Source of the DNA: Elusimicrobia bacterium RIFOXYA12_FULL_51_18 | GTDB taxonomy: Bacteria > Elusimicrobiota > Elusimicrobia > Elusimicrobiales > UBA9959 | Length of the DNA: 64,000 nucleotides | Assembly: GCA_001800245.1 (NCBI GenBank) | Contig: MGVA01000043.1 | Span: forward strand, 29,098-93,097 | Direction: 5' to 3' | In this document: piece by piece, positions 23,194-48,952 of the stretch | Numbering within the stretch: position 1 is the stretch's first letter | How the letters are laid out: every line of letters begins with the position of its first letter | Notes under the pieces: model-generated | The model's database searches: none | Seen by the model: only the letters and a program-made list of their open reading frames with translations | Told to the model about the DNA's origin: nothing | Made by a program: the position numbers and the translations under genes

Positions 23194-23483
23194 TGAAGAC
23201 GAATAAAGGCGCGAAGGAAATATTTCTAGACGCCGGGATTTATTCCGGCGAAGCCGTAAAGCTGGCGGCTTTTGTGTTTTCCGACAAGGCGGATATACGG
23301 ATCGTTCCGGGCAAAAACGTTTTTAAAATCTCGGTACGCGCGGAAAACGCCGAGCGCGCGGCCGGAGAGTTCCTGAACGAGGTTCTGAACCAGCAGTGCA
23401 GGATAGACCTCGCGAAGAAAAATTCCAAAATAGCCGGCATTATAGTAACAAAGGCGCTTTTGTCCGCTGCCGGTGAAAAATAG
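23193..23483 (+). CDS. HxsD-like small protein
   Basis: ORF 23178-23483 trimmed to ATG 23193 (TAATG overlap with the HxsB-like stop). 97 aa. FLNEVLNQQ resembles the LLNDYxLRE motif that names the HxsD family (from memory). Confidence 0.5.
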   Translation: MKTNKGAKEIFLDAGIYSGEAVKLAAFVFSDKADIRIVPGKNVFKISVRAENAERAAGEFLNEVLNQQCRIDLAKKNSKIAGIIVTKALLSAAGEK

Positions 23484-23566
23484 TTCCTTTCCAAAAATCG
23501 TGCTTCCCCGGCGGCCCGTGGCAAAGGTCATCAATGACCGTGATTTTCTGTTAAGCGGGTCATAGC

Positions 23567-25644: not shown

Positions 25645-25659
25645 TAAAAATCAGGGATA

Positions 25660-27776: not shown

Positions 27777-27809
27777 GAGCCGAGACCGTCTGATTTAAAG
27801 GAGAACAGG

Positions 27810-29741: not shown

Positions 29742-29755
29742 AAGAGACTCCTATT

Positions 29756-30604
29756 ATGGCGCTGATACATTTATTCGGTCGTTGCAATCAGAAATGCGTA
29801 TTCTGTTCTTATCCATCCGATGCTCGAAGCGGGGAGAGTCCGGATCTCAAATCCTGGCTTAAAGAGATCTCGGAGATGAAGCCCGGGCTGGTGCAGATAT
29901 CCGGCGGGGAACCTTTGCTGGCCGATTTCTACGATCTTATGAAGGTCATAGCCTTTTGCGCCAGGAGCGGCCGGCAGGTAGAGTTGCAGACCAACGGCGC
30001 GCTGTTGGCCACACTGAAACCGGTGAGACTGGAACTTCTGGTAAAAACACTTGATCGGGCTAAAGGTTATTTTAATATTAATTTTTCGGCGTCCCGCGCC
30101 GAGCTTGATTTAAAGATCACCCGTACCCGGGGAGCTTTTACCGCGCGGGTCAAAGCGGTCAGGAATCTGCTGGCGTTGGGGGCAAAAGTCAGGCTGACAT
30201 GCGTGATCTTTTCGCTCAACTATAAGGAGGCGGCAGGGGTTGCCGCCTTCGTCGTTGAAAATTTCAAGGGTCTTTCCTGGCTGCAGTTCAGTTTTATAAA
30301 AGGCATAGGCAGGGCCGAAGGCCCTGGATTCATCCCAAAGTACGCTTCCGCGGCGCCCTACCTTATTAAAGCCCTTGACCTGTGCGGCCGGAAAGGGCTT
30401 AAATGCGAAGTAGACCATATTCCGCCTTGTTTCCTTGGCCGCCATTATGCCAGAAACGTGGATATGAAAAAAATGCGTTTCGGGATCCTGGGGCCGCACC
30501 TGGCGGAGAAGGAAAAAGTGCCGGAATGCGAAGGCTGCGGTTTTTTAAAGTTCTGTCCCGGTCCCAGAAAAGATTATGTTTCGGCTCATGGTCATTTAAA
30601 ATGA
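29756..30604 (+). CDS. radical SAM protein (short-form family)
   Basis: 282 aa with CNQKCVFC, SGGEPLL and the C-terminal CEGCGFLKFCPGPRKDYVSAHG. Confidence 0.8.
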   Translation: MALIHLFGRCNQKCVFCSYPSDARSGESPDLKSWLKEISEMKPGLVQISGGEPLLADFYDLMKVIAFCARSGRQVELQTNGALLATLKPVRLELLVKTLDRAKGYFNINFSASRAELDLKITRTRGAFTARVKAVRNLLALGAKVRLTCVIFSLNYKEAAGVAAFVVENFKGLSWLQFSFIKGIGRAEGPGFIPKYASAAPYLIKALDLCGRKGLKCEVDHIPPCFLGRHYARNVDMKKMRFGILGPHLAEKEKVPECEGCGFLKFCPGPRKDYVSAHGHLK

Positions 30605-31851
30605 AAAAATCACCTCTTCCGTTTACAAAAGAATTTCCTGCGCTTCAAGCGCGAGTGGGCGGCCGCAGGATGATCTATCTGGACAGCGCATGCACCGCGC
30701 TGAAGATGAAATCCGCCGCGGAAGCCCAGAAGGAGTTCCTCCTGGACCTGGGGGGCTGCGGAGGCAGACGCTCTTCTCACGCACTGGCCGGCGCGGTAGA
30801 GGAGAAATACGCCGCGGCCCGCGCGTCCGCGGCGCGGTTTACAGGCGCGGCTTCGCCCGAAGAGATAATATTCACCAGCGGAGCCACCGAGGCCGTTAAT
30901 GTTTTAGCCGGCGCTTTCCCCTTTACCCCGAAAAAGAACGAGGTGATACTTTCCCCGCTGGAGCATAACAGCGTTTTTCTCCCTTTTTATAACCTGGCGA
31001 AAGCGGGAAAAATAAAATTGAGAGTGATGCCGCTTAAAGATTTAAAGCCGGATATGAGGGCGTTGGAGACCATTTTAACCGGGAAGACCGCCCTGGTCTG
31101 CGCCGCGAGGGCGTCCAATTTCTTCGGCGGGGTTACGGACTTTGCGCGCATGGCGAGCATGGCTCATTCGGCCGGCGCGGTCATATTTTTCGATGACGCG
31201 CAGTATGCCGCCACCCATCCGGTCAATGCCGCGGTTTCAGGCGCGGATGCCCTGGCTTTCTCGGGACATAAACTGGGGGCGCCGTTCGGTACCGGGGTTT
31301 TGTGGGTTAAAAAAACGCTGCTTGCCAGGCTTAAACCATTCAAGGTCGGAGGGGGAGTGGTAAAGAGTGTGGAAGCTGCCGGTTCCAAATTTAAAGTGGA
31401 GTATCTCAGGGATTACCAGGGCTTTGAAGCCGGCGTGCAGAATTACGCGGGCGTTTTTGCCATGGCCCAGGCTTTTGAAACGCTTTCGGCGCTCGGTCAT
31501 GAAGCCATAAGGGAGCATATGGCGGAGTTGGTGACTTACGCCTGCGGACGGCTCCGCGGTTTTAAAGAGATAAAAGTGCTGGGCGAGGAGGAAGACCTTA
31601 AAAGAGGGGCGCTGATCTCATTCGTTCCGGCGGGAAGATCTTTCTCTCCGTCGGACCTTAATATTTTCCTGAACACTTACTACAAGGACCGGTTTATAGC
31701 CTTGCGCACCGGCCGCCATTGCGCGGATCTCGCTTCTTTGAATAGCGGCTTGTCAGGGACCGTCAGGCTTTCTTTTTTTATCTACACTTCTAAGCCGGAT
31801 ATGGATGATTTTACCCTGGCGTTGCAAAAGTATCTTTCTTTTTTACGTTAA
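30601..31851 (+). CDS. class V aminotransferase, SufS/CsdA-like cysteine desulfurase
   Basis: ORF 30403-31851 trimmed to ATG 30601 (ATGA overlap with the rSAM stop). IYLDSACTAL is present. The PLP lysine lies in FSGHKLGAPFGTGVLWV. The active-site Cys lies in ALRTGRHCADL. Confidence 0.8.
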   Translation: MKKSPLPFTKEFPALQARVGGRRMIYLDSACTALKMKSAAEAQKEFLLDLGGCGGRRSSHALAGAVEEKYAAARASAARFTGAASPEEIIFTSGATEAVNVLAGAFPFTPKKNEVILSPLEHNSVFLPFYNLAKAGKIKLRVMPLKDLKPDMRALETILTGKTALVCAARASNFFGGVTDFARMASMAHSAGAVIFFDDAQYAATHPVNAAVSGADALAFSGHKLGAPFGTGVLWVKKTLLARLKPFKVGGGVVKSVEAAGSKFKVEYLRDYQGFEAGVQNYAGVFAMAQAFETLSALGHEAIREHMAELVTYACGRLRGFKEIKVLGEEEDLKRGALISFVPAGRSFSPSDLNIFLNTYYKDRFIALRTGRHCADLASLNSGLSGTVRLSFFIYTSKPDMDDFTLALQKYLSFLR

Positions 31852-32156
31852 AGGCTTGTGATCGAATGATATGGATATTTGGAGGCCCATATTTAAACCG
31901 GATGCAAGGCGCGAGATGCGCCGATATAATGGGGGAAAATTTATTCCGGCAGCTTAAAGTAAAAGACCTGCGCGTATCTGCCGGTCTTATAGAACACCGG
32001 ATGACTATTATCCTGCCGCCGCCCGGCTGATGCTGAGTACCGGTTAATCGGCGGACCTGACATGAGAGGGGAGACCCCGTCCGTAAATAAGATTTACAAG
32101 ACCTGCGGTCATTAAATACAATATAAAGTAATCGGCTTTTCAAAACTGGAGGAGCA

Positions 32157-33344
32157 ATGGACCTTAATAAACTCAATACCACCGTATTAAAACATAGAAA
32201 CGAGATGATAACTTTCGCCAGGGATCTCATCCGAATCCCCAGTTTTTCCATGCAGGAAGGCAGGCTTGTGGAACGCATTAAGAAAGAAATGATCAAGGTC
32301 GGTTTTGACAGGATAAAGATAGACGCTATGGGCAACATCATAGGTTTTATCGGTAAGGGTAGAAAAAAGATAATGATAGACGCCCATATCGATACCGTGG
32401 GTATCGGAGATAAAAGCGCATGGAAGATAGATCCTTTCGGAGGCGTTTTTAAAAAAGGGACTATCTACGGGCGCGGCGCCACCGACCAAAAATTGTCCAT
32501 GGTCTCAATGGTCTATGGCGGAAAGATGATAAAAGAACTGGGGCTGACGGGCGATTATACTTACATAGCCGTGGGTTCCGTAATGGAAGAAGATTGCGAC
32601 GGCCTGCCGCTTATACACATTATTGATAAGGAAAAAATAAAGCCCGATTTCGTGGTGTTGACCGAACCTACCAATCTTTGCGTCTATCGCGGTCACCGCG
32701 GGCGCATGGAAATAAAGGTGGTGACAAAGGGCCGTTCGTGCCACGCCTCCGCCCCGGAGCGCGGGGATAATGCCGTGGTGAAAATGGCCCTCATTATCCG
32801 GCAGATCACGGACCTGAACAAGAATCTTAAAAAAGATAAATTTCTGGGCAAGGGCACCGTGGTCGTCACGTCCGTGGAGTGCAAGACGCCTTCGCTGAAC
32901 GCCGTGCCGGACGAATGCACCATTTATCTGGACCGGCGTCTTACGGCCGGAGAGGGGCTTAGGTCTTCCGTCGCGGAAATAAAGCGCCTGCCGGCGGTCA
33001 AGAAGACCGGGGCGAAAGTGGAGGTGCTTTATTATGACGCCATGTCCTGGACTGGCTTAAAAGTGGGGCAGGAAAAGTATTTCCCGACCTGGGTGCTGCC
33101 GGAAAACCATAAACTGGTTCAGGCGGGCGTGAAGGCTGGGAAAATAGCGCTGGGTAAAACCCCGGTGGTTGACAAGTGGGTGTTCTCAACCAACGGCGTA
33201 GCCACCGCCGGGAGGCTCAAGATCCCGACCATCGGCTTCGGGCCGTCCAACGAGATATACGCGCACACGGTCAAAGAAAACATGCCAGTGTCGGATCTCT
33301 TAAAGGCGGCTGTGTTCTACGCGGCTATACCGCAGTATCTGTAA
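32157..33344 (+). CDS. ygeY: YgeY-family M20 metallohydrolase
   Basis: 395 aa, alignable end to end by eye with E. coli YgeY. Matching blocks include MGNIIGFIG, DAHIDTVGIG, EEDCDG, YRGHRGRMEI, CHASAPERGDNA, VVDKWVFSTNGV, IGFGP and FYAAIP. Confidence 0.88.
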   Translation: MDLNKLNTTVLKHRNEMITFARDLIRIPSFSMQEGRLVERIKKEMIKVGFDRIKIDAMGNIIGFIGKGRKKIMIDAHIDTVGIGDKSAWKIDPFGGVFKKGTIYGRGATDQKLSMVSMVYGGKMIKELGLTGDYTYIAVGSVMEEDCDGLPLIHIIDKEKIKPDFVVLTEPTNLCVYRGHRGRMEIKVVTKGRSCHASAPERGDNAVVKMALIIRQITDLNKNLKKDKFLGKGTVVVTSVECKTPSLNAVPDECTIYLDRRLTAGEGLRSSVAEIKRLPAVKKTGAKVEVLYYDAMSWTGLKVGQEKYFPTWVLPENHKLVQAGVKAGKIALGKTPVVDKWVFSTNGVATAGRLKIPTIGFGPSNEIYAHTVKENMPVSDLLKAAVFYAAIPQYL

Positions 33345-33370
33345 ACTTTAGAAACGCCAGGAGATAAAAA

Positions 33371-34579
33371 ATGCCTATCGATATCGCAAATTCCTTAGAT
33401 ATCCCAAAGTCCTTAAGCGAACTGGAGAAGCTTGGCGCCGGCCTTTACGGCAAGGATTTCCTGCTGACCTGGGAAAAATCCGACGCCGAACTTAAGGAAG
33501 TGTTCCTGATAGCCGAATTGCTCAAGGAAATGCACGCCAAGAACATTCCGGTCGATATGTTCAAGACCGGGCTCGCCGTCTCGAACTTCCGGGACAATTC
33601 GACCAGGACCAGGTTCTCCTTCGCCTCCGCCTGCAACCTGCTGGGGCTCTCCGTGCAAGACCTCGACGAGGGTAAGTCGCAGATAGCCCATGGCGAGACC
33701 GTGCGTGAAACGGCCAACATGATCTCTTTCCTGACCGAAGCGGTCGGGATCAGGGACGATATGTTCATCGGCAAAGGGCATGCCTACATGCGGGAAGTGG
33801 CTGAGGCCCTCGATGACGGCTTCAAGAACGGCGTGCTGAACCAACGCCCGGCCGTGGTAAACCTCCAGTGCGACCTGGACCATCCGACGCAGTCGATGTC
33901 GGACATGTTGTTCATAAAGAACCATTTCGGCGGCTTCGACGGCTTGAAAGGCAAAAAGATAGCCATGACCTGGGCCTATTCGCCCAGCTACGGCAAACCG
34001 CTTTCCGTCCCGCAGGGTGTCATCTGCCTAATGACCCGCTACGGCATGAGCGTGGAACTGGCCCATCCCGAAGGCTATGACCTGCTACCGGAGACCCTAA
34101 AGGTGGCGGAAAAGAACGCCAAGAAGTCAGGCGGCTCCTTTAAGGTCTCCAACAGCATGGAGAGCGCTTTCACGGACGCCGACATCGTCTACCCGAAGAG
34201 TTGGGCCCCGTACAAGGTGATGGAGCGCAGAACGCAGCTCCTCGAAAAGTCCGACCACGCCGGACTGAAGGACCTGGAGAAAGAGTGCCTTGCGCAGAAT
34301 GCCAGGCATACCGGCTGGGAATGCGACGCGGGTAAGATGAAACTTACCAAGGGCGGCGAAGGCCTGTACCTGCACTGCCTGCCCGCCGACATAACCGACG
34401 TGTCCTGCAAACGGGGCGAGGTATCCGCGAAGGTGTTCGAGAAGTACCGCATCGGCACCTACAAGGAAGCCGGCTACAAGCCATTCATTATCGCGGCCAT
34501 GATAACCGCCTGCACGAAGAAGAACCCCTCGAAAGTGCTCGAAGCCCTGTACAAGGCCGGGCAGAAACGGGTCCTGTAG
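33371..34579 (+). CDS. ygeW: knotted carbamoyltransferase YgeW
   Basis: 402 aa with long identical runs to E. coli YgeW as I recall it. These include KDFLLTWE, FRDNSTRTRFS, QDLDEGKSQIAHGETVRETANMISF, VNLQCDLDHPTQSM, KKIAMTWAYSPSYGKPLSVPQG, IVYPKSWAPYKVME and HCLPAD. Confidence 0.92.
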   Translation: MPIDIANSLDIPKSLSELEKLGAGLYGKDFLLTWEKSDAELKEVFLIAELLKEMHAKNIPVDMFKTGLAVSNFRDNSTRTRFSFASACNLLGLSVQDLDEGKSQIAHGETVRETANMISFLTEAVGIRDDMFIGKGHAYMREVAEALDDGFKNGVLNQRPAVVNLQCDLDHPTQSMSDMLFIKNHFGGFDGLKGKKIAMTWAYSPSYGKPLSVPQGVICLMTRYGMSVELAHPEGYDLLPETLKVAEKNAKKSGGSFKVSNSMESAFTDADIVYPKSWAPYKVMERRTQLLEKSDHAGLKDLEKECLAQNARHTGWECDAGKMKLTKGGEGLYLHCLPADITDVSCKRGEVSAKVFEKYRIGTYKEAGYKPFIIAAMITACTKKNPSKVLEALYKAGQKRVL

Positions 34580-34639: not shown

Positions 34640-36070
34640 ATGAAAAAAAGAGAAAGGACCTCGAAGTGCCCGCCACAGGTGTGGTGGAAACGCTTGGGCG
34701 GGGAGTATCTGCTCACCAACGACGCCGGAGAGTACATTATGCTTTCCCCCGGAGAGTTTCGGGTTTTTACGGGAACGGGCGCTTTGCCCGCTTCCGGTCG
34801 GAAGCTTCTGGAGATGGAGGAAAAAGGGTTCCTGAGGGAGCGTTTGGATTTTGAGAGCCTTTCCCGCAGATGGAAGGAGTCCAACGCCTATCTGGACCGC
34901 GGACCGGGCCTGCATATTTTCGTCCTAACGCTTCGGTGTAATCATAAATGCCTGTACTGCCAGTCCGGCGCTTTGCGCGAAGATGAAAAACGTTCCGATA
35001 TGGATATTAGGACCGCGCGTAAAATCCTGGATTTCGCTCTTGGCGCTCCGGTTAAAGGTCTGACCATAGAATTCCAGGGCGGAGAGCCGCTGCTGAATTG
35101 GGAGGTTCTGAAAGAAACGGTTCTTTATGGTGAAAAAAAGGCTAAAGCTTCGGGTAAAGAAATAAAGTTCGCCCTGGTTTCCAATTTCAGCCTGATGACA
35201 AAAGAAAAGGCTGACTTCCTCATAAAACATGGGGTAGCGCTCTGCACATCCCTTGACGGTCCCGCTTCCCTGCATGACCGGAACCGGATTTTTGCCGGAG
35301 GCGGCTCCCATGCCTTGGCCGTGAAATGGATAAAATATTTCACCGGGGTTTGCGGCAAAGGTTCAGACTGCGGTCCCAGCGCCTTGCTTACGATCTCAAA
35401 ATATTCGCTGGGCCGGGAGAAAGAAATAGTGGAAGAATATGCCCGCCTGGGACTGGCGTCCATCTTTGTCAGGCCTCTGGTTCCGATAGGTTTTGCAGGC
35501 GACCTTTGGGATAAGATAGGCTGCTCGCCGGAAGAATTCACCGGGTTCTATAAGAACAGCCTCGGTCACGTGCTCAGGCTCAATAAAAAAGGCCTGGACT
35601 TAAAAGAAAAAACGGCCTTTCTGCTGATAAAGAAGGCGATCGGGATGGAAGACAATAAATACGTGGATTTGCGCTGTCCCTGCGGAGCGGGACTAGGCCA
35701 GTTGGCTTATGATTTTAATGGCGATGTTTACACTTGCGATGAGGGCCGTATGCTGGCCTGGCAGGGGGACAGTCTTTTTAAAGCTGGCAATGTTTTTGAG
35801 GACGCCTATCTTGACGTCATCTCGTCCGGAGCGGTTAAAGCTTGCGCCGCGGCTTCCAGCCTGGATTCCCAGCCGATGTGTGCGCGGTGCGTTTGGCGTC
35901 CTTACTGCGGAATCTGTCCGGTTTATAATTACCAGACCCAGGGGAGCCTTTGGGGTGATATGCCGGGTAACGGGCGGTGTCGGATCTTGAAAGGGATTTT
36001 TGAGACGGTCTTCGGCTTCTTAAAGGATACAAAAACGAAGGAAGTATTTCGGAAATGGCTTAATTCCTGA
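34640..36070 (+). CDS. hxsB: radical SAM/SPASM peptide maturase, HxsB-like (copy 2)
   Basis: 476 aa with CNHKCLYC, FQGGEPLLNWEVLKETVLY and the SPASM tail RCPCGA...YTCDEGRM...CARCVWRPYCGICPVYNYQTQGSLWGDMP. It is colinear with 21739-23193. Confidence 0.7.
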   Translation: MKKRERTSKCPPQVWWKRLGGEYLLTNDAGEYIMLSPGEFRVFTGTGALPASGRKLLEMEEKGFLRERLDFESLSRRWKESNAYLDRGPGLHIFVLTLRCNHKCLYCQSGALREDEKRSDMDIRTARKILDFALGAPVKGLTIEFQGGEPLLNWEVLKETVLYGEKKAKASGKEIKFALVSNFSLMTKEKADFLIKHGVALCTSLDGPASLHDRNRIFAGGGSHALAVKWIKYFTGVCGKGSDCGPSALLTISKYSLGREKEIVEEYARLGLASIFVRPLVPIGFAGDLWDKIGCSPEEFTGFYKNSLGHVLRLNKKGLDLKEKTAFLLIKKAIGMEDNKYVDLRCPCGAGLGQLAYDFNGDVYTCDEGRMLAWQGDSLFKAGNVFEDAYLDVISSGAVKACAAASSLDSQPMCARCVWRPYCGICPVYNYQTQGSLWGDMPGNGRCRILKGIFETVFGFLKDTKTKEVFRKWLNS

Positions 36071-36155
36071 CCCGGGATAATTCCAGGCTTTTACCCCCGG
36101 GCCGTATTTGAACCGGCAAAGCCTTCTTCCGTGAGCTTCGGTTTCCGCAAACGAT

Positions 36156-36887
36156 ATGAAGCAAAACAAAACGCTGCTTCTGTGCTCATACGGTCTTAGG
36201 CCGGAGCAAATGACAATTGAGACCATAGCTCAGCTCCGGTCATGCGACATGGTTTTTTCCAATAGTCTGAACCATGCCGACGCGGAACGCTTTAAACCGT
36301 ACTGTCGGGAACTGCGCGCGCTGGAGGGATGCGGATGGGAAGCCTTGACGGGAATGGTCTTTAAAGCTTTTTCGAACAAGAACAAGATCGCTTTTCTTAC
36401 TTACGGGAATCCATTTTTTTTGACTCCAGCCGCAATACTGGCTGAAAAAGCCGCCCGACGCGGCATAGATTTCAAGGTTATGGAGGGAGTATCCTCTTTC
36501 GACGCGATAATCAATCATTTGCGTATGGGCGAATACGCGCCGGATGGTCTGCGGCTTGTTAATCTGGGAGACAGCTTCGTCAATAAGGCACGGAAATGCA
36601 CCCCCTCCATGGACACGCTTTTCTTCAGTCTTTGGCGGGTTAATGTAAAAGGCAATTCGGGCATCAAAAAGAACTTTGTCAAAGAACTTTCCTTGGCTTA
36701 TGACCGGTTGCACCCCGTTTTTATTATCGATCATCCACATTCCGTAAAAACCACCATCGCTCTTTTGGAATGCAGGATAGATAAAGTCTGTCTGACTACC
36801 ACCATATATATTCCGGCAGTGATAAAAAATCGGTATAGGCGTTCAAAACTTTTTTTCGTTCACAAAAAAAGCGGGCCGGGTATATAA
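36156..36887 (+). CDS. tetrapyrrole-methylase-fold (TP_methylase superfamily) SAM-dependent methyltransferase
   Basis: 243 aa. LLLCSYGLRPEQMTIETIAQLRSCDMVFSN, IAFLTYGNPFFL and VMEGVSSFDAIINHL follow the G.G...T......D.V / GDP / PG.SS pattern of this fold. Confidence 0.55.
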   Translation: MKQNKTLLLCSYGLRPEQMTIETIAQLRSCDMVFSNSLNHADAERFKPYCRELRALEGCGWEALTGMVFKAFSNKNKIAFLTYGNPFFLTPAAILAEKAARRGIDFKVMEGVSSFDAIINHLRMGEYAPDGLRLVNLGDSFVNKARKCTPSMDTLFFSLWRVNVKGNSGIKKNFVKELSLAYDRLHPVFIIDHPHSVKTTIALLECRIDKVCLTTTIYIPAVIKNRYRRSKLFFVHKKSGPGI

Positions 36888-37168
36888 AGATTGCCGCTTA
36901 CCGTGGCAGATCCCGAAGTCGGCAATGGAGAGCTTTTCTACCGGCTGGAAAAGCGGAAGCCGTGCCATTGCATCGGCAGCATGCGCGGCAAACGGTATGC
37001 GCCTTTGGTAAATAATAAGCGCGGCCGGCGCCATGGACGGCGGTCAGTCGGCCTTCTGACGGGTATGCCCCATGCTGCGGGGAAAGCGCAGCGGTTAGGC
37101 ATTATACCCTTGAAAACCGGGATTGGATGTGCCATAATTGAATATTGATAAGTATATCTTCGCTTTAC

Positions 37169-37197
37169 TTGAACAGCGGGTGGTAGGGCGCTATATT
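37169..37197 (+). promoter_or_regulatory. candidate sigma70-type promoter for the 37218-38625 (Cys-rich protein + HGS-repeat peptide) unit
   Basis: TTGAAC (37169-37174), a 17-nt spacer, then TATATT (37192-37197), ~20 nt upstream of ATG 37218. This rests on hexamer and spacing match only. Confidence 0.3.
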
Positions 37198-37217
37198 AAT
37201 TAGGGGCGGGTAATCTC

Positions 37218-38300
37218 ATGAAAAAGTGGGGCATACTGTTGTTGGTTGTATTGGGCGGCCTACTTCTGGGCTTGCAGTATTTCATAAACAAGGGCGAAAA
37301 GAAGCTAGTTATGCAGTCTGGGCCGACTTCGACAGGACAGCCGTTGGGCGTGGCTTTGCCTCCCGCGACCACCGGGTATATCGTATCTGAACTTTCCAAT
37401 AATGCGGGAGCGGAAGTCGGAGCCGGAGATTATAACAACCTTGTTCTGCCGAACGTCCCGACCGCATATAAAGGAGCTTGCCCTGGCGGTTCGCTTGCCG
37501 ATATTGTTTCATCGCACGGCAAGATTTGGGGATATTTTGTGCCCAAATCCGTTATAGCTTTCGGATTCAAAGAAAACGAGACTATATATAATTTTATCGG
37601 GGATTATGTTGGATGCGTGGCTGCGGCGCGTTCCGATGTCAGCTTATGCGAGATTTTGCCGGCCGAGGCTGAGGGTCTGATTTTGAATGTTAGTCCCGCT
37701 TTCTATTGTAGATCAAGAAGTACTCCGGTCATGTTTTACGGATATCTTTTGGGGAAGAACAAGGATTATTCCGTATGTCAAGCCTCGCTTTTTGACGTAG
37801 ATCCGGGCAATATGGCGAAGATAGCGATTCCGGATTATTGTCAGGCCGCTTCCAAAGGCATAGTAAGTGTCAGGGAGTATATGACCAAAGTTATGCCGGA
37901 ATACACTAAAGAAATCAAAAGTGCCTATCCGCTTTCAAAGGCGGATTGCTCTGGCGACGGGACATGTCTTTCAGGCTTCATGAGCTATGCTGCGATAAAA
38001 CGTGGCGACGCATCCATATGTCCCCCCGCGCCTGGCGGCGCTTCCTGCGCGGCTTTTATAACCAAGTCCTTGGTCCCTTGCGAACCTGTAGTCAAGGATA
38101 TGTCCAAAGCTTACTGCGGTTACGTTGAGAGGCTCAAAAAGAGAACCGGAGGCTATATCGGTGTGACCAGTGAGGCGATGCAGGCTGATATGGCTCAAAA
38201 AAATATCGAGAAGGAAAGAGCGAATCTTCAGAAAAAGGAAGCTGAAAAAGAAATGTTGGACGTGAATAAGAATGTGAAAAAAATTTTGGGGAAGGAATGA
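37218..38300 (+). CDS. hypothetical exported/membrane-anchored Cys-rich protein with C-terminal coiled coil
   Basis: 360 aa with an N-terminal anchor WGILLLVVLGGLLLGL, 12 Cys spread through the body, and a Lys/Glu-rich tail (NIEKERANLQKKEAEKEML). I recognise no family. It ends 13 nt before the HGS-repeat ORF. Confidence 0.6.
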   Translation: MKKWGILLLVVLGGLLLGLQYFINKGEKKLVMQSGPTSTGQPLGVALPPATTGYIVSELSNNAGAEVGAGDYNNLVLPNVPTAYKGACPGGSLADIVSSHGKIWGYFVPKSVIAFGFKENETIYNFIGDYVGCVAAARSDVSLCEILPAEAEGLILNVSPAFYCRSRSTPVMFYGYLLGKNKDYSVCQASLFDVDPGNMAKIAIPDYCQAASKGIVSVREYMTKVMPEYTKEIKSAYPLSKADCSGDGTCLSGFMSYAAIKRGDASICPPAPGGASCAAFITKSLVPCEPVVKDMSKAYCGYVERLKKRTGGYIGVTSEAMQADMAQKNIEKERANLQKKEAEKEMLDVNKNVKKILGKE

Positions 38301-38313
38301 CTGGGGGAATATT

Positions 38314-38625
38314 GTGAAAAAGAAAACATCCAAAATAAAAAAGAATATCAAACTGTTCTTCTCAAGCGAAGAAGGGAAGATGCTGGACTCCGATATCGTG
38401 AAGACCGGTCTGGCGCTGGGGATTCTCGGTGCGGCTATGGTGGATCAGGCTAATGCGGAGAACATACATTCCAACTACTTTACTTCGACCTCCCATGTCA
38501 GCCACCAGAGCCACGGTTCGCACGGTTCGCACGGTTCGCACGGCTCCCACTCGTCCCACGGTTCGCACGGTTCGCACGGCTCGCACGGTTCGCACGGTTC
38601 GCACGGTTCGCACGGGTCTTATTGA
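38314..38625 (+). CDS. hxsA: His-Xaa-Ser repeat peptide, HxsA-like candidate precursor
   Basis: 103 codons from GTG 38314 (GGGGGA 5-6 nt upstream), with an alternative ATG at 38380. The C-terminus is S-HVS-HQS-(HGS)4-HSS-(HGS)7-Y-stop. The N-terminal part contains KTGLALGILGAAMVDQANA, a signal-like segment. It is surrounded by HxsB/HxsD-like genes. Confidence 0.7.
   Translation: MKKKTSKIKKNIKLFFSSEEGKMLDSDIVKTGLALGILGAAMVDQANAENIHSNYFTSTSHVSHQSHGSHGSHGSHGSHSSHGSHGSHGSHGSHGSHGSHGSY
38494..38619 (+). repeat. 14 x 9-bp in-frame tandem repeat (consensus cacggttcg = His-Gly-Ser)
   Basis: Read directly as cat gtc agc / cac cag agc / cac ggt tcg x3 / cac ggc tcc / cac tcg tcc / cac ggt tcg x2 / cac ggc tcg / cac ggt tcg x3 / cac ggg tct. 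Confidence 0.95.
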
Positions 38626-38658
38626 CCGGCGCGCTTCCGGGGCTGAAAAAGCGAAGCT

Positions 38659-39819
38659 ATGCTTAAAGGTTTGTTCTATCATTTTTCCCCCGGTAAGGAC
38701 ATCGGCCACGGGGTCCATCTTTTTCGTTTGGCCGCCCGCTTAAATACACTGTGTGAGACCGGAGCCGAATTTACTCTGTTGCGGGATTCCGGCTCCTATC
38801 CCCCAAAAAGCCTCTGGACGTACGGCCCGCATATTCCGTTGTGTCGCCCCGCCGCTCGCAATATAACCCGAAGACAAAAAACGATACTATCCGCTTTCCC
38901 GGAACGCGGCCTGGATTTCTTGCTTACCGCTTTCTTCCCTTTCGGAAGGACGGCCTGCGGCCGGGAAATTCTGCCGGCCTTGAAAAAAGCGAAAGTTTCC
39001 GGCGCCGCTATTTACGCGAGTGTTCCCATGCCTTATTTCTCCCATAGCGAAAAGGACCTGGAAAGGCTTTTTTACTTTGCCGGATTTTACGACCGGATAT
39101 TTATACATTGTCCCCCGGGTTTCGACCTTAAATATATGGCGTCGGCCGTGCCCTTTGAGGGTCGGATATCTAGCGCCCGCTTTCTTGAAGTTTTTAAAAA
39201 ACTTAAACAAAAAATCTGTTTTACGGGTTATGTAGTGCCGGGCGTAGAGAAGTCCGCGCCAAAGTCTCAGGGGGGGGGCTTTATATTGGTACATAGGGGG
39301 GGCGGTTCTACCTCGCCCGATATAGTCACCTGCGCCATACTGGCCAAAGAGCGCGTTAAAAGCGGTCTCCCGATTACGGTGGTGGCGGGACCGGCCAGCA
39401 CGGCCGCGGAGATGCGCTCCTGGCGCGGGCTTATGAAAAAGCGGAAAGTAAAAGGTGTCAGGCTTTTGAAAACCGCCGACAATTTTTTTGAGCGTATTGC
39501 CGACTGTGAAATCTGCTCCGGCACTGCCGGAGGAACGGTGTATGAAGCGTTGTATTGGAATAAAAAAATGGTCCTTATCCCCTTTAAAGGCGCACCTAAG
39601 GCCGAGCATTCGGACCAGCTGGCGCGCTCCGCCATGCTTAAAAAGCTGGCCGGCGCCATCGTGCTGGATTATGATACGCTGACGCCTGAAGGGCTGGCCG
39701 GCGCGCTTGATAAAGCGATTTTGGCTCCCCGTCCGGTTTTGGAGCCCGATCCGGACCTTTTCGACGGAGCCTCCGTTTTCGCTAGAACTATTTTGGAGGA
39801 TTTGTGTTCAAGACGGTGA
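38659..39819 (+). CDS. GT-B fold glycosyltransferase (MurG/GT28-like, COG4671-type)
   Basis: 386 aa. The N-terminal FYHFSPGKDIGHGVHLFRLAARL is a G.GH..R..A motif. The Gly-rich loop is VHRGGGSTSPD. The C-terminal half CSGTAGGTVYEALYWNKKMVLIPF...EHSDQLARS is typical of the nucleotide-sugar-binding domain. Confidence 0.55.
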   Translation: MLKGLFYHFSPGKDIGHGVHLFRLAARLNTLCETGAEFTLLRDSGSYPPKSLWTYGPHIPLCRPAARNITRRQKTILSAFPERGLDFLLTAFFPFGRTACGREILPALKKAKVSGAAIYASVPMPYFSHSEKDLERLFYFAGFYDRIFIHCPPGFDLKYMASAVPFEGRISSARFLEVFKKLKQKICFTGYVVPGVEKSAPKSQGGGFILVHRGGGSTSPDIVTCAILAKERVKSGLPITVVAGPASTAAEMRSWRGLMKKRKVKGVRLLKTADNFFERIADCEICSGTAGGTVYEALYWNKKMVLIPFKGAPKAEHSDQLARSAMLKKLAGAIVLDYDTLTPEGLAGALDKAILAPRPVLEPDPDLFDGASVFARTILEDLCSRR

Positions 39820-40772
39820 TGTTGGAGCTCACTTACAGGTGCAACCTCAAGTGCTCCTTCTGCTATCTCCTGCATAAGCGCAGACTCAATAAAGCGCCTT
39901 ACGAACTGACTACCGCCGAGATCTTGAGGCTTGTGGACCGCTTTAAGGCCGGAACCCATTTTTATCTTTCCGGAGGGGAACCGTTCCTCCGTAACGATAT
40001 CTTTGAAATCATGGAGTACATAAAAAAGGCTGGCTTCCGTTTCGGTCTCAATACCAACGGCACTCTCCTGGACGCGGTTAAAATAAAAAAACTGGCCGCC
40101 CTCGCGCCCGGCTACGTAATCTTTTCGCTGCACGGCTCCCGGCCTCTCCATGACCGGCTGACGGGGCTGAAGGGAGCCTGGCGCTCCCTGATGCGGAATA
40201 TGTCGGCCCTTGCCGCAATCTCCGGTTCTGGAACTGAGATCCTGGTCAATTGCGTGGTTAATCGTGAGAACTCCGGGGAACTCCTGAAAGTCTACCGCGC
40301 CGCTTCCAGGGCCGGGGCGCAAAGAGTGGTTTTCGAGCACCTGCAATTCCTGAAACCGCGAGAAGCTTCCGGGATGCCGGCGGTTCTGAAAGCAGGAGGA
40401 ATAATAATCCCCGAACTTGAAAAATACGGCGCGGATGCGGCCCTTATACACCGTCAGTTCGGGGAAATAAGGGGTCTGAAGGACAGGTCCGCCCATTTCG
40501 AGACAAGGCCGCTCATGACGGAACGCTGTCTCGATGATTATTATAACGGAGAGATAAAGCCTTCCGGGTCATGCGCGCGGGTATTAGACGCGCTGAATGT
40601 GGAGCCGGACGGGAAAGTGCGGCTTTGTGTCCTTTACGGCCTTAAAACCGGACACGCGCTTGCGACTCCCCTTAAAGACCTGCTGGCCTTCAAGAAAAAA
40701 TATATCGGTCGCAAATTGCCCTCCGGCTGCGCCCGTTGCTGCCACCGATTCGAGCTCTTTAGATATTTTTAA
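39804..40772 (+). CDS. radical SAM protein with SPASM/twitch-like C-terminus
   Basis: 322 aa with a GTG start overlapping the GT gene by 16 nt. It has CNLKCSFC and SGGEPFLRND. The C-terminal Cys-rich region is GSCARVLDALNVEPDGKVRLC...SGCARCCHRFE. Confidence 0.8.
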   Translation: MFKTVMLELTYRCNLKCSFCYLLHKRRLNKAPYELTTAEILRLVDRFKAGTHFYLSGGEPFLRNDIFEIMEYIKKAGFRFGLNTNGTLLDAVKIKKLAALAPGYVIFSLHGSRPLHDRLTGLKGAWRSLMRNMSALAAISGSGTEILVNCVVNRENSGELLKVYRAASRAGAQRVVFEHLQFLKPREASGMPAVLKAGGIIIPELEKYGADAALIHRQFGEIRGLKDRSAHFETRPLMTERCLDDYYNGEIKPSGSCARVLDALNVEPDGKVRLCVLYGLKTGHALATPLKDLLAFKKKYIGRKLPSGCARCCHRFELFRYF

Positions 40773-41481
40773 GGGAACTTATAAGGGAAAGCTTCACCCA
40801 CCGGAGTTCCTCCAGGCCTTTTAGAAATCCGACGTAGTCCTGAAAGACTCTAAAATTGTGCTTGTCCAATGTGGAATGGTGGAAATACGCGCCCAGGGCC
40901 GGGCCATGTCCGCGGAGCGCGGCCATGGTCTTTCTTTTGAGTCCGGCCAGGTCAAGGGGGCGGGGCTTTAAGTTCATATCGTAATCGTTAATGTTCACTT
41001 TAGCCGGAAGAAAAACAACTCCGCTTTTTTCAAAACCCGCTATCATTTTGCTGGCGGTGAATATTTTCAGGCCGGCCTCCCTCGCGGCTTTTATGGTGTC
41101 CGTGTTGTAGATATGGAAGGGCGGCACGAAAGCCGGTACGGCCCCGCGGCCGAAATTTTTTTTCATCAGGAGCGCCCCTTTGCGCATATCGTCCCGCTGA
41201 AGTTTCAGGCTTCTTGAGGGGCCGAATTCCTGCTTCGTAAAGCGGTTCCCTGAATGGTCGCGGTGGGACAAGCCGTGCTGGACGAATTCGAAAAGCTTTC
41301 CCGCCCCGGCCCGGTTTTTCATGGACGCCGCGAACCCCGGCTCTATACGCGCCGGAATGACGGCGTAGACCGCCGGCACTTTCGCCTGCAGCAGGAAGTT
41401 GAAAGTCTTCAGAAAACGCGCGTCCGTCCGCGTCACGTCATCGTCTCTCAAAAAAACGTATTTCTTTATTTTGGCAGCCAT
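40759..41481 (-). CDS. polysaccharide-deacetylase-like protein (DUF2334/NodB-like)
   Basis: ORF 40759-41544 trimmed to ATG 41481 (MAAKIKKYVFLRDDDVTRTD...). LRDDDV and FVQHGLSHRDH resemble the Asp and His-His metal motifs of this fold. The family call is tentative. Confidence 0.45.
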   Translation of the reverse strand: MAAKIKKYVFLRDDDVTRTDARFLKTFNFLLQAKVPAVYAVIPARIEPGFAASMKNRAGAGKLFEFVQHGLSHRDHSGNRFTKQEFGPSRSLKLQRDDMRKGALLMKKNFGRGAVPAFVPPFHIYNTDTIKAAREAGLKIFTASKMIAGFEKSGVVFLPAKVNINDYDMNLKPRPLDLAGLKRKTMAALRGHGPALGAYFHHSTLDKHNFRVFQDYVGFLKGLEELRWVKLSLISSLKNI

Positions 41482-42794
41482 GGGTCCCCCGCTGAATAAC
41501 CGCCGCCGGCCTCCTTGGCCAGGAACCGGCTGCCGCCAAGGCACTTAAGGAAGTGGGCGCACTTCACGCAGCGCGGAGGCAGATGTCTCGGCGTATTTAT
41601 TTTTTTAAGGATCGGAGAGCCCCAGGCTTTCTTTAACGTCCGGCCGAGGTTTTCGTTTATATAGTAGCTGGGTTTGAAAAAACCGCGCGGGTCATGGACC
41701 ACGCGGGTGTGGCCGTCGTCAAAGGCCGCGCCCAGAAAATGCTTCCTTTCCGCGGCCGGTACCAGGCATAAAGGGACCGGGTTCGCTATGACCACGCGGG
41801 GCGGGCAACGGAGCGGTAAAAGCAGCTTTGAAAGACGCGCCATGTCCGAAGGGATCAGTTTGAAATCCCCATTGTCCGCGAGGGCTCTGGGGGGCATTAT
41901 AGGGCGGTAAAGTTCCCAGATATCGGCTTTCAGTCTTTTGGCGAGCCGGTAATAGGCTGGAAAATCTTTTAGAAATCGTTTTGAGATGACCGTGCCCAAA
42001 CGGAAAGTTTTGATGCCGGCATCTTTTAGAATTTGTATATTGGAAAGTTTCCTAAAAAAAAGCCCCTTGGCGCCGGTGGCTTCCATTTCGCTGGCTTCGT
42101 CATAACCTTGCAGTGAGACAAGGACATTGTCTATATAGCGGGCGGTATTTTTCAAAGTCTCCTTGCCCGCCGCAAGAGCATTGGTGTTGACCAGGGTGTA
42201 AAAGCCCATAGCTTTGGCCTTTTTCAGCAGAGGCGGCAAATTCCCGCTCAGGAACGGCTCGCCCCCGGTGAAGCGGATATTTTTTACGCCCATTTTTTTT
42301 GCCTGGCGCAGGATTCCGCTTAAGGTTTTAAAAGACTGTTCTTCCGGCGCGCGCCCGGAAAAACATGCCCGGCATTTCAGATTGCATTTTTTTGTAAGTT
42401 CAATGACCAATTCGTTCGGCGCCGATAATACCGGCAAAAGCTCTGGCAGGAGATCTTTGTGGAAAACGCTCTTCCTTTCCAGGCCGGGGCAGAGTTCCTT
42501 GAGCCTGCAAGTCCCGCAGCCGGGAACCCTTGCGTAAGCCGCGCCTTTCTTCTTGCGGTATACTATGTGGTCCCAGGCGTCCGGCATAAAGCAGAAAGGC
42601 GGGCCTTTGATGAATACGTTGAAAAAAGTTTCAAGGCCGTTAAGGGCCTTATAGAGTATTTCCCTGGCGATAAGAGGATTCGAGCCGCGGAGCAGGGAAA
42701 GAACCACGGTGTTTTCTTTAGCCCTTACGGACACTCCTAGTCCCCTCCCCCGCAGCTGTCCGATTATATCCGTGCCGGTCATGCGAGCCGCCAT
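41466..42794 (-). CDS. radical SAM protein with ~130-aa N-terminal extension
   Basis: 442 aa with CNLKCRAC and TGGEPFLSGN. The N-terminal domain has a CGTCRLKELCPG motif. The C-terminal region is CVKCAHFLKCLGGSRF. Confidence 0.8.
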   Translation of the reverse strand: MAARMTGTDIIGQLRGRGLGVSVRAKENTVVLSLLRGSNPLIAREILYKALNGLETFFNVFIKGPPFCFMPDAWDHIVYRKKKGAAYARVPGCGTCRLKELCPGLERKSVFHKDLLPELLPVLSAPNELVIELTKKCNLKCRACFSGRAPEEQSFKTLSGILRQAKKMGVKNIRFTGGEPFLSGNLPPLLKKAKAMGFYTLVNTNALAAGKETLKNTARYIDNVLVSLQGYDEASEMEATGAKGLFFRKLSNIQILKDAGIKTFRLGTVISKRFLKDFPAYYRLAKRLKADIWELYRPIMPPRALADNGDFKLIPSDMARLSKLLLPLRCPPRVVIANPVPLCLVPAAERKHFLGAAFDDGHTRVVHDPRGFFKPSYYINENLGRTLKKAWGSPILKKINTPRHLPPRCVKCAHFLKCLGGSRFLAKEAGGGYSAGDPWLPK

Positions 42795-43927
42795 AAATAT
42801 TTTCCCTTTTTAAAATCTCTTTTAATGAGGCCTTTATTTATTAAGACCTCACCCGTAGTCAGCACCCCGGCGCCGTCATCGCAGTCGTGGCATAACGGCA
42901 GGCTTCGTGCGAGCTCCAATACTTTTGAGGTCGGAATGCCGTCTTCTTTTTTCAGGACTTCCACGAAGCATTTCTCCATGCCGCTCAAATATCCCGGAGC
43001 CGGTCTAAGCTTTTTTCTCTTCGCGGGCCCCGCCGCCGGTTTAAATCCCTTCCAGCCGAACAGTGCCAGGTAATTAAAATTCACGCCCCCGCATTTTCTC
43101 CGGAAAAAGCAGCGGGCGCAGACCGGCCCCCGTTCCTTGGCTTCGGAGACGTTTTTGTCAAGGTCCAGGATGGGGCGGCCGGGGGGGGCTACTACGGTGT
43201 TGAATTTATATAGATCCACGGCTTTCCGTTCGTGGCCGGGAAGAAGGCAGGGCGGCATGTTCAGGGCTTTTACGCCGGCTCCGAGGCCGGCGGAGTCGGT
43301 GAAATCCAGCGCTTTGGAAATACCGGCGGAAGCTTCAGGCATGCTGATGCCGAGCGTTTTAAAATTTTCCCGCATTCTGCCCACGTAAATAGGATAGATG
43401 AGTACAAATTCCGACACTCCGCGGTCCATGAAAAATTTCAAAGCCGGTTTGAGTCCGTCGTAATTGTGTCTGGTGATAAGCAGGTTCACTCCGACGGTAA
43501 GTTTCAGGGCGAGCATGTGGTCGAGGCCCGCCAGGCTTTTTCTGAAAGAGCCGCTCGCGCCCGTAAGACGGTCGTGGACCCGGGAAGTATTTCCCAGAAA
43601 AGTGAATTTGCATACAGTAAGGCCGGCTTCCGCAAGACTGAGGCACAGCGCCGGATTGGAAAGTTTCATCCCGTTGGTCTGAAGTCTTATTACTTTAAAA
43701 CCCGCACGGCGCGCCGCCGCGGTCAAAAACGTAAGATCTTCGTGTAAAAGGGCTTCGCCTCCGGAAAAACCGATCCGCTTATAGCCCTGTTTTTTTGCCG
43801 CGCAGATATGGTGCACGGCGTTTCGCAGGCTGCATTTTGCGGCCGGGTCGAAATCGCTCTGGGAGCAGAACCCGCAGGCCAGATCGCAGTTGTGGTTCAG
43901 AATGATTTCGTAACAGTCTTTGGGCAT
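42779..43927 (-). CDS. radical SAM protein with C-terminal winged-helix-like domain (paralogue of 26583-27776)
   Basis: 382 aa with CDLACGFC, SGGEALLHED and CARCFFRRKCGGVNFNYLALFGWKGFKPA. The C-terminal part reads EKCFVEVLKKEDGIPTSKVLELA...LINKGLIKRDFKKGKYLWRL. Confidence 0.85.
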   Translation of the reverse strand: MPKDCYEIILNHNCDLACGFCSQSDFDPAAKCSLRNAVHHICAAKKQGYKRIGFSGGEALLHEDLTFLTAAARRAGFKVIRLQTNGMKLSNPALCLSLAEAGLTVCKFTFLGNTSRVHDRLTGASGSFRKSLAGLDHMLALKLTVGVNLLITRHNYDGLKPALKFFMDRGVSEFVLIYPIYVGRMRENFKTLGISMPEASAGISKALDFTDSAGLGAGVKALNMPPCLLPGHERKAVDLYKFNTVVAPPGRPILDLDKNVSEAKERGPVCARCFFRRKCGGVNFNYLALFGWKGFKPAAGPAKRKKLRPAPGYLSGMEKCFVEVLKKEDGIPTSKVLELARSLPLCHDCDDGAGVLTTGEVLINKGLIKRDFKKGKYLWRLA

Positions 43928-43979
43928 AAAAGAAACGAATATTTTAGGATCAAAAGAATAAAAAAACAGCCTCTAACCG

Positions 43980-44903
43980 TTACTTTGAGCTTGCCGTCCT
44001 GAAAAAGTCCCGGACGGGCGTGAATTCTTTCCACCCGTAGAGAACCGGATATTCACGCCAGGGCCCTTCACAGATATCAAAGTACTTGCAGTCAGGGCAG
44101 AGCGGGCCTTTGGCTTTGCCTTCGGTTTTCCTGTAAACGCCGTAATCTTTTATTGTTCGGTCCGCGTCCACTACCGGCCCGGCCGGTATTATGCGTTCGG
44201 CCACGCAGGCGCTATAGCCTTTCATCAGGCAGAACGGAATAGCTTCGGTATAGCATTGGATGCCTCTGCGGATGCCGAGATCAAGACCTTTTCTGAGATA
44301 AGGCATGACCATGGTTTTCCTGGGGACCATGCGTTTTTTATTCTCGGCCGCGGTGCCGACTATGTGGATAAAGGCGAACTGGTACTGCTTCACCCCGAGT
44401 CTGATGAGGAGGGCCGCTATGGCCGGCAGTTCCCTGTAGTTCAGCGATGTTATGACTGTATTGGTGATCACTGGCAGGCCGGTTTTAACTGCATTTGCGA
44501 TGCCGGACACGCTTTGCGTAAAACTGCCGGCTGAGCCGGTCAGCGCGTCATGGGTTTCGGCCTTGGCTCCATGCAGGCTGGGCCCTAGTTCGGTTGCGCC
44601 GGCCCTTGAAAGTTCCGCGCAGAAACCTGGATAGGCTAAAGTCCGACCATTGGTCTGGAGCTGGATGTTTGCAAAACCGATTTTTTTAGCGATCCTGACA
44701 AGGTCCAAAATTGCGGGATGCAGGCTTGGTTCGCCGCCTGTGAATACTACTCCCCGTACGCCGTCGGCATAGGCTTTTTTTAGTTCCATTGCCACGGTTG
44801 CGGCGCTTTTGTCCGGGTATAGGTCCCGCTTATGCCCTTGGGCGCAAAAACCGCAAAGGTTGTTGCAGCGAAAGCTTATTTTTATATCTATGCGAGTGTA
44901 CAT
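43980..44903 (-). CDS. radical SAM protein (short-form family; paralogue of 25660-26586)
   Basis: 307 aa with CNNLCGFC, TGGEPSLHP and the C-terminal CPDCKYFDICEGPWREYPVLYGWKEF. Confidence 0.85.
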   Translation of the reverse strand: MYTRIDIKISFRCNNLCGFCAQGHKRDLYPDKSAATVAMELKKAYADGVRGVVFTGGEPSLHPAILDLVRIAKKIGFANIQLQTNGRTLAYPGFCAELSRAGATELGPSLHGAKAETHDALTGSAGSFTQSVSGIANAVKTGLPVITNTVITSLNYRELPAIAALLIRLGVKQYQFAFIHIVGTAAENKKRMVPRKTMVMPYLRKGLDLGIRRGIQCYTEAIPFCLMKGYSACVAERIIPAGPVVDADRTIKDYGVYRKTEGKAKGPLCPDCKYFDICEGPWREYPVLYGWKEFTPVRDFFRTASSK

Positions 44904-45109
44904 GAACGGATATTCGTGAACCTTTTTTAATATCGGATCACGCGGTTCCTTTTGGGGAAAATATCGGGATCCCCGCCGGATTATCAGGCCGCCCCTTGTA
45001 GAGCATGGCCGAGGATATTTTACTAATTTGAACGGCTGAAAAATGGCCCATCCGCCGCCGCGCTTGCGTAGCCGGCCGGATCAGAGCATGACCGGTTTGC
45101 GGGCCGGGT

Positions 45110-48881: not shown

Positions 48882-48952
48882 ACGATTTTTGGCCCGGAAT
48901 ATTTAAATATCCATAAAAGCCAAACTCCGGACGGATATGCCAACCCCTTATT

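Follow-up and report, generated by a model that had tools for sequence, protein, structure and literature searches.

We describe a short open reading frame (ORF) in a 64,000-nt stretch from the groundwater-derived, uncultured Elusimicrobia bacterium RIFOXYA12_FULL_51_18 (hereafter the window; coordinates are positions in it unless a related locus is named), the product of which ends in 14 His-Xaa-Ser (HxS) triplets encoded by a 9-bp tandem repeat and a terminal Tyr. Judged by its profile score, this ORF is a genuine HxsA4-family gene, a family that had already been catalogued together with its link to the radical S-adenosylmethionine (SAM) maturase HxsB. Related loci are associated with HxsB, and their precursors share a conserved architecture in which the number of triplets varies in-frame. 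Taken together, the sequence features make it probable that the ORF encodes a ribosomal substrate of an Hxs-type radical SAM maturation system, exported with its leader serving as signal peptide.

Reading frame and repeat

Translation of the ORF gives VKKKTSKIKKNIKLFFSSEEGKMLDSDIVKTGLALGILGAAMVDQANAENIHSNYFTSTS-HVS-HQS-(HGS)4-HSS-(HGS)7-Y*, a peptide of 103 amino acids that begins with a GTG codon, in agreement with a preliminary description of this DNA which had claimed a 103-codon ORF with 14 C-terminal HxS triplets and a product devoid of Cys. The same description placed a near-perfect 9-bp repeat at 38494-38619, which is accurate for 12 units; the first two triplets, HVS and HQS (38494-38511), are degenerate copies. 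Tandem Repeats Finder (TRF) detects 11.6 copies of a 9-bp period at 38512-38615, with 88% matches, a score of 159 and the consensus CACGGTTCG. Nine bases depart from the consensus, seven of them at third codon positions of the HxS frame, in which six synonymous changes and one non-synonymous codon change are found; the corresponding counts for the remaining frames are 1/7 and 0/8. Because differences between repeat units are mostly synonymous in the HxS frame and not in the other two, we take it to be the selected frame. Overlapping ORFs are present at 38429-38743(+) and 38362-38718(-), and their earlier designation as artefacts stands, as the synonymous pattern fits the HxS frame only and they are by-products of the repeat.

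The GTG is preceded, at a distance of 6 nt, by the purine-rich sequence GGGGGA. Homologues have an ATG at the position of this GTG and conserve the N-terminal residues, favouring the long start over an internal ATG at 38380. In a six-frame scan of the whole window, runs of at least three H-x-[ST] triplets were confined to the precursor repeat, and no second precursor was found there, this being the sole HxS run and the sole SEEGK-type leader with a His-rich core behind it. No intrinsic terminator or stable hairpin was found 3' of the precursor, Rfam and tRNA scans were empty, and an exact-sequence look-up did not return the peptide from the protein collection.

Family assignment

The precursor scores 68.6 bits against the NCBIfam model NF038313 (His-Xaa-Ser repeat protein HxsA4; E=6.4e-19, cut-off 55) in an alignment of near full length, with peptide residues 8-102 matched to positions 5-92 of a 93-position profile. 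Like members of this family, it carries C-terminal HxS repeats behind a conserved N-terminal region. Of the sister NCBIfam models (HxsA2 NF038296, HxsA3 NF038309, HxsC4 NF038332 and HxsD_rel NF038315), the HxsA3 model gives 37 bits for the precursor (cut-off 65) and the HxsA2 model 9.5. The earlier call of an HxsA-type protein is therefore borne out by a score above a curated cut-off, through NF038313 and not through the canonical HxsA model TIGR03979 that had been named for the check, to which the precursor has no match even at E <= 10. A search of 5.8 billion protein clusters returned 333 relatives, some of them already named HxsA4 by NCBI and originating from Elusimicrobiales and Omnitrophota metagenome-assembled genomes. 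HxsA4 is known as a curated model only, and we found no paper that describes or tests the family.

Precursor anatomy and variation in repeat number

Scanning one genome per species gave 86 confirmed related loci, of which 80 were kept (designated L plus a number). They are nearly all from Elusimicrobia, with a few from Omnitrophota, candidate-phyla-radiation bacteria, DPANN archaea, Myxococcota, Bdellovibrio and Planctomycetes. From these 80 loci 77 precursors were extracted, rewarding the earlier suggestion to look for further HxS ORFs in related genomes. They display a common order: a basic N-terminus, an F-L-x-S-E-E-G-K element, ~8 variable residues, a hydrophobic stretch of 13-16 residues, a small-x-small site, a conserved H-x-N-[YA]-[FL] motif, the repeat array and an aromatic end. 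The FLxSEEGK-type motif (FFSSEEGK in the window) is common to this set and to a set of 21 homologues, in which E19 and E20 are invariant and F15, L16, S18, G21 and K22 nearly so. As such near-invariance exceeds the needs of a signal peptide, a role of the motif in recognition is suggested. A search of 1.84 billion representatives with the leader by itself found only 23 clusters, and nearly all the complete ones among them have His-rich cores, indicating that leader and core belong together.

The hydrophobic stretch followed by a small-x-small site is present in 74 precursors, as ANA|E in the window and as ASA|Q, AAA|Q, LLA|Q or APA|Q elsewhere. In the window peptide a K-rich n-region, unusually long at ~30 residues, precedes the hydrophobic segment TGLALGILGAAMV and the ANA|E site in a Sec-type pattern. 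The N-terminus had been read before as either a Sec signal or a leader, and it fits both, combining the conserved leader motif with a Sec-like h-region and an AxA site.

Among the 74 unfused precursors, 29 have GGWC-type, 23 W and 13 Y tails, and the arrays of this set comprise 3-32 triplets with a median of 16, or up to 33 by a looser count across all 77. Over 1207 triplets, Gly accounts for 74% of middle residues, Ala for 11% and Ser for 6%, and position 3 is Ser in 95%. The expectation that the repeat should change in-frame is thus realized between relatives, the arrays of which span 3-33 triplets. Units number 14-16 in the nearest clade and as few as 4 in metagenomic relatives, and variation between species is not in doubt. 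In one contig with 100% identical flanks (L004), the counterpart of the precursor gene (10001-10231) lacks exactly 81 bp in-frame relative to the window, equivalent to 9 units, and a JGI assembly has 14 units like the window. A Logan assembly (L003) ends inside the repeat, which shows that short-read assemblies are unreliable here.

Fused precursors occur in three candidate-phyla-radiation loci (L047 9998-11491, L069 9995-11569 and L070 9998-11527), the genomes of which are from Nealsonbacteria and Saccharibacteria, with one binned as Pseudomonadales. In these, the HxsA4 leader and repeats run on through a Cys-Cys-Pro-Phe junction into a conserved domain of ~350 amino acids. Pfam searches gave no match for this domain, the HxsD-like ORFs or a secreted 260-aa protein encoded in the window (Table 1).

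Maturase genes

Two window genes exceed the HxsB cut-off (Table 1; the cut-offs used were 370 bits for TIGR03978, 267.9 for TIGR03977, 500 for HxsC4 NF038332 and 50 for TIGR03976). Their products, HxsB1 and HxsB2, are 52% identical. HxsB2 belongs to the tightly packed plus-strand gene run that includes the precursor (34640-40772), and HxsB1 to a second Hxs module (20418-24490) 14 kb upstream that has no precursor of its own. In this second module, the NEVLNQQCRIDL motif of the first HxsD-like protein (21285-21767, 38.3 bits) aligns with the LLNDYxLRE region. HxsB and HxsC had both been named as partners of HxsA-type proteins; HxsB is borne out here, and HxsC is represented by HxsC-like paralogues that miss the relevant cut-offs. 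An ORF at 36891-37148 was considered as an HxsD remnant, and this was not supported.

Conservation of the peptide beside its maturases, anticipated in the preliminary description, is evident from the presence of HxsB in 73/80 related loci spanning several phyla. HxsD-like genes occur in 51/80 loci and small HxsC-like radical SAM genes in ~50/80. In ~35 loci HxsB immediately precedes the precursor, and in most others a single gene separates the two, the usual order being 260-aa protein, HxsD, HxsB, HxsD2, Cys-rich protein, HxsA4 and radical SAM genes. The 260-aa protein (20418-21200) has a hydrophobic N-terminal segment, a repetitive Gly/Asn-rich body and a CCRIQ end, and heads the cluster in 27-30 related loci.

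A Cys-rich partner protein

Across loci, the immediate upstream neighbour of the precursor is either HxsB or a Cys-rich protein. In the window it is a 360-aa protein, the gene for which has its stop codon 13 nt before the HxsA4 start. This protein has no Pfam or NCBIfam match and 13 homologues, none of them named, among which 12 Cys are conserved. Its AlphaFold2 (AF2) model, with a mean predicted local distance difference test (pLDDT) score of 82, consists of a transmembrane helix (residues 4-25), a disordered segment (25-70), an all-alpha domain and a long C-terminal helix; a Foldseek search of the model against PDB returned nothing better than E=1.1. The partner is detectable in 31/80 loci, and a homologous or analogous anchored Cys-rich ORF lies directly upstream of the precursor in ~35. 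It is weakly similar (E=0.002 over 108 aa) to proteins in the same position in distant loci, all of which are anchored and Cys-rich. Within the window clade, the 12-Cys partner is always directly upstream of the precursor. A relationship to the 260-aa protein was considered and rejected, as no homology was found.

Table 1. Coordinates of the precursor and of other features in the window
Feature	Position	Strand	Evidence
HxsA4-family precursor/substrate peptide	38314-38625	+	translation, NF038313, 333 homologous clusters, synonymous-change pattern
Leader / Sec-like signal, residues 1-48	38314-38457	+	FFSSEEGK motif, h-region TGLALGILGAAMV, c-region DQANA
14 His-Xaa-Ser triplets on 9-bp tandem repeat	38494-38619	+	translation, TRF
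Terminal Tyr codon	38620-38622	+	directly after HxS triplets
HxsB2, radical SAM/SPASM maturase	34640-36070	+	TIGR03978 456.9 bits, Pfam Radical_SAM and SPASM
360-aa partner with N-terminal transmembrane helix and 12 conserved Cys	37218-38300	+	AF2 model, 13 homologues
Secreted Gly/Asn-rich 260-aa protein	20418-21200	+	no family
HxsD-like	21285-21767	+	TIGR03976 38.3 bits, cut-off 50
HxsB1	21709-23193	+	TIGR03978 476 bits, cut-off 370
Second HxsD-like	23178-23483	+	TIGR03976 42.3 bits, cut-off 50
HxsC-like	23567-24490	+	TIGR03977 171 bits, cut-off 267.9
Polytopic membrane protein	24487-25644	+	
Radical SAM genes	25660-26586, 26583-27776, 29756-30604	+	
TPR protein	27810-29741	+	
TP_methylase-fold protein	36156-36887	+	PF00590 E=5.9e-13
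GT28-C-type glycosyltransferase	38659-39819	+	PF04101
Small radical SAM enzyme, no SPASM detected	39804-40772	+	PF04055 E=3.9e-23; same position in relatives
Polysaccharide-deacetylase/DUF2334 protein	40759-41544	-	travels with GT28
Radical SAM gene	41466-42794	-	
Radical SAM gene, HxsC-like	42779-43927	-	
Radical SAM gene, HxsC4-like	43980-44903	-	130.8 bits
Radical SAM gene, B12-binding type	45110-46876	-	

Proposed route of maturation and export

We propose that the K-rich F-[FL]-x-S-E-E-G-K element would dock the peptide, still unfolded, on HxsB in the cytoplasm, with HxsD-like proteins and small HxsC-like radical SAM enzymes as putative partners, and that these enzymes would covalently modify the C-terminal HxS array. 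Our leading guess is a bond between His and Ser, which may or may not include an extra carbon. The hydrophobic segment and AxA site would then serve as a Sec signal cut after A48, leaving outside the cytoplasmic membrane a mature peptide of ~55 residues that begins with ENIHSNYF and ends in Tyr; the pattern of the sequence and the parallel with canonical HxsA suggest this step. The exported peptide would act with the membrane-anchored Cys-rich protein encoded directly upstream, and the glycosyltransferase and deacetylase specific to its subtype may decorate it. Export is favoured since the hydrophobic stretch and small-x-small site recur among precursors, the partner has a transmembrane helix and canonical HxsA is exported.

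Several observations weigh against this reading. The only HxsC-like gene of the second module is a paralogue that scores 171 bits against a cut-off of 267.9 (23567-24490), no window gene reaching that cut-off; the HxsC4-like gene (43980-44903) has 130.8 bits against 500 for NF038332, so that, unlike the HxsA4 set, the window has no radical SAM gene at the HxsC4 cut-off; and the two HxsD-like proteins, at 42.3 and 38.3 bits, fall below 50. HxsB2, the copy adjoining the precursor, has no HxsD beside it. Some relatives lie far from any radical SAM gene (L005/L006, L060, L067, L073 and L074). The Sec signal with cleavage after A48 is a prediction, its site read by eye. The 5-unit allele of L004 may be real or may be an assembly collapse, and the association of tail type with neighbouring gene set, described below, is confounded by shared genome ancestry. 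In L005/L006 (9208-10330), HxsA4 and a 272-aa Cys-rich partner stand alone among housekeeping genes with the nearest radical SAM gene 10 kb away, and the peptide-partner pair is therefore separable from the maturases.

Comparison with other systems and alternative explanations

Haft and Basu have reportedly treated canonical HxsABCD by comparative genomics. In Enterobacteria and Pseudomonas this is an antiphage system acting in the periplasm (Li et al., 2026; PMC13128918). N-terminal processing of canonical HxsA requires HxsB, HxsC and HxsD, and its single further change is one of +8 Da (+C/-4H) in the last SHRSS motif; this substrate bears a signal peptide, and HxsB/C/D are proposed to act in the cytoplasm, after which the substrate reaches the periplasm (PMC13128918). 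Antiphage activity requires every HxS repeat, the basic repeats bind DNA in the model put forward, and 99.7% of canonical systems are in Pseudomonadota; the 2026 study could not reconstitute the HxsB/HxsC chemistry (PMC13128918).

The window resembles this system in having an HxsB that passes TIGR03978, HxsD-like and HxsC-like genes and an HxS-repeat substrate with a predicted signal, and the published route of cytoplasmic maturation followed by export is the one that we propose here for the window peptide. It differs in phylum, in gene order (the precursor lies 14 kb from the D-B-D-C module), in the many additional radical SAM and sugar-modifying genes and in the anchored Cys-rich partner. 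The common maturation genes and substrate type, together with the experimentally demonstrated activity of canonical HxsABCD and its need for each repeat (PMC13128918), raise the possibility that the matured peptide is likewise a periplasmic antiphage effector that blocks entry of phage DNA. We regard this as unlikely: the peptide does not match TIGR03979 and has no detected peptidoglycan-binding domain, Pfam yielding only a sub-threshold Collagen match, and its H-G-S repeats are without Arg or Lys, unlike the basic, DNA-binding repeats of the canonical substrate. Nor is the locus island-like, lying beside bamA-skp-lpx genes in a synteny conserved in other Elusimicrobia, and a search of 2.9 million viral contigs yielded no relatives. 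PADLOC 2.0 gave generic viperin-type radical SAM matches only, from a database that has no HXS model and predates the HXS paper, and the canonical systems are almost confined to a different phylum.

Three-residue cyclophanes containing His, which the preliminary description had mentioned, do exist and are made by HaaB, YhhB and HtkB, which join His-C2 to C-beta of residue 3 (PMC11499958). HxS has the same aromatic-x-x form, repeated and with His first, and HxsB, like the triceptide maturases, is a SPASM radical SAM enzyme. A triceptide-type RiPP (a peptide made by ribosomes and then modified post-translationally), in which each H-x-S would carry a His-C2 to Ser-C-beta cyclophane of -2 Da and the resulting poly-cyclophane would bind metal, is nevertheless an improbable product. 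HxsB falls outside those maturase families by score, reaching 43-49 bits with YhhB (NF041707), 39.5 with XyeB (TIGR04496) and 39.4 with GrrM (TIGR04261) against cut-offs of 310-450, and is closer to the thioether-forming maturases PapB, nif11, CcpM and CteB, the last (5WGG) being its closest solved relative. The metal binding is conjectural, and the sole experimental data, those from the related canonical system with +8 Da at one motif, lend no support to a crosslink of -2 Da in every triplet.

Two further explanations were weighed. The precursor might be a multi-copy scaffold from which small His-Gly-Ser molecules, acting as cofactor or metallophore, are excised in the manner of PqqA or MftA with many cores, as the 14 adjacent near-identical units and the 20 radical SAM genes of the window, with its U32-type and M20-type hydrolase-like genes, would allow. 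The Sec-like signal, conserved mature N-terminus (H-x-N-[YA]-[FL]) and aromatic C-terminus point instead to the whole peptide as product, the M20/YgeY-YgeW-SufS genes are linked in only 4-9/80 loci, and candidate-phyla-radiation genomes fuse the repeat to a 350-aa domain; we therefore give the scaffold very little credence. Poly-His peptides bind metals without modification, and the repeat has weak Pfam Collagen and Scl-type matches (23.5 bits), from which it could be argued that the product is a secreted structural peptide, His-rich or collagen-like (Gly-X-Y), that stays unmodified and is only incidentally encoded near radical SAM genes. This is highly improbable given the linkage to HxsB in 73/80 loci across several phyla, and the Gly-X-Y version of it is excluded by a score below the PF01391 gathering threshold of 27.2 and by Gly occupying 74% of middle positions only, whereas His and the Ser at position 3 are kept.

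Proteusins such as the polytheonamides are hypermodified RiPPs with a small precursor amid many radical SAM enzymes, including B12-dependent ones, and the window shares this arrangement. Unlike proteusins, its peptide has no nitrile-hydratase-like leader, and its leader would double as a Sec-type signal.

Candidate tailoring genes and wider neighbourhood

The GT28 glycosyltransferase gene is present in 10/80 loci and the deacetylase gene in 9/80. Both are restricted to loci with Tyr tails, where GT28 occurs in 10/13 (0/64 others) and the deacetylase in 9/13 (0 others). Loci with GGWC tails have HxsD in 25/29 cases, the 260-aa protein in 18/29 and GT28 never. Tail type thus tracks the neighbouring gene set.

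The TP_methylase gene between HxsB2 and the partner gene is present in the near-identical L004 and was found by tblastn in 0/80 related loci; owing to this absence it does not qualify as a core tailoring enzyme, and from the comparison of loci it is best described as a lineage-specific insertion. Its product has a weak NCBIfam match to the diphthine synthase Dph5 (16.5 bits), which we treat as a lead only. Dph5 methylates a histidine that has been modified by a radical SAM enzyme.

The window has 20 radical SAM genes in 42 kb (21709-63870), including two for HxsB, seven of B12-binding type and about nine classed as small HxsC-like or other. Five of the B12-binding genes are tandem paralogues at 56656-63870, where GC content drops to 0.43-0.49. 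Runs of 7-8 radical SAM genes occur in related loci L007, L069 and L080, and the four minus-strand radical SAM genes downstream of the precursor (41466-46876) are found in the same order in L004 and L008-L031. Some of the many radical SAM genes of the window may be peptide modifiers, and co-location suggests that the genes at 24487-30604 belong to the Hxs system. Among the latter, the polytopic protein (24487-25644) has a marginal, sub-threshold match to prepilin-peptidase family A24 (E=0.0066) and is conserved among radical SAM genes in ~12 related loci; it could be a processing protease. A link to the nitrogenase-paralogue/radical SAM clusters reported from groundwater Elusimicrobia was considered and set aside, as no Nif-like gene was found among the scanned window ORFs; the paper concerned mentions no peptides (bioRxiv 10.1101/765248).

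Genes of the U32 family (UbiU-like) are present in 47222-50660 and 15979-17130. Two of them are each followed by a gene without assignment for a protein of ~270-295 amino acids, a set kept near HxsA4 in 7 related loci, and a third is located upstream. Since some members of this family are oxygen-independent hydroxylases, these genes may be the "hydroxylase-like" genes of the preliminary description. Between the two Hxs modules (30403-34579) are SufS-like, YgeY (M20 hydrolase) and YgeW (carbamoyltransferase) genes. They are linked in 4-9/80 loci, with YgeW also adjoining HxsB in L011, L019 and L023, and are probably unrelated to the Hxs system. Upstream, 290-12652 holds an outer-membrane biogenesis block of lpxB, lpxI, lpxC, lpxD, skp and bamA with a PIN-PhoH gene; in 8-10 other Elusimicrobia loci, BamA and PhoH are placed in the same way with respect to the Hxs cluster.

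Implications

The discovery is modest, as the family and its link to HxsB were catalogued before. What had so far been a database model now yields, by comparison, hypotheses that can be tested: a leader that also works as signal peptide, tailoring genes that differ between the three tail subtypes, and a Cys-rich partner that is conserved and matches no known fold. Fourteen nearly identical H-G-S sites in a soluble-looking peptide of 103 amino acids would multiply any mass shift per site, which should make the window peptide a much easier substrate for studying HxsB/HxsC chemistry. More tentatively, and with less confidence than we place in the peptide being an Hxs substrate, HxsA4 loci might constitute a class of their own, separate from the antiphage HXS system, in which a Sec-exported, hypermodified poly-(His-Gly-Ser) peptide and a membrane-anchored 12-Cys partner function outside the membrane in metal handling, redox processes or protection of the envelope. 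If so, several of the neighbouring radical SAM, B12-radical-SAM and sugar-transfer enzymes would hypermodify a RiPP the leader of which doubles as a signal peptide, and conservation of this class would extend from Elusimicrobia as far as candidate-phyla-radiation bacteria and DPANN archaea.

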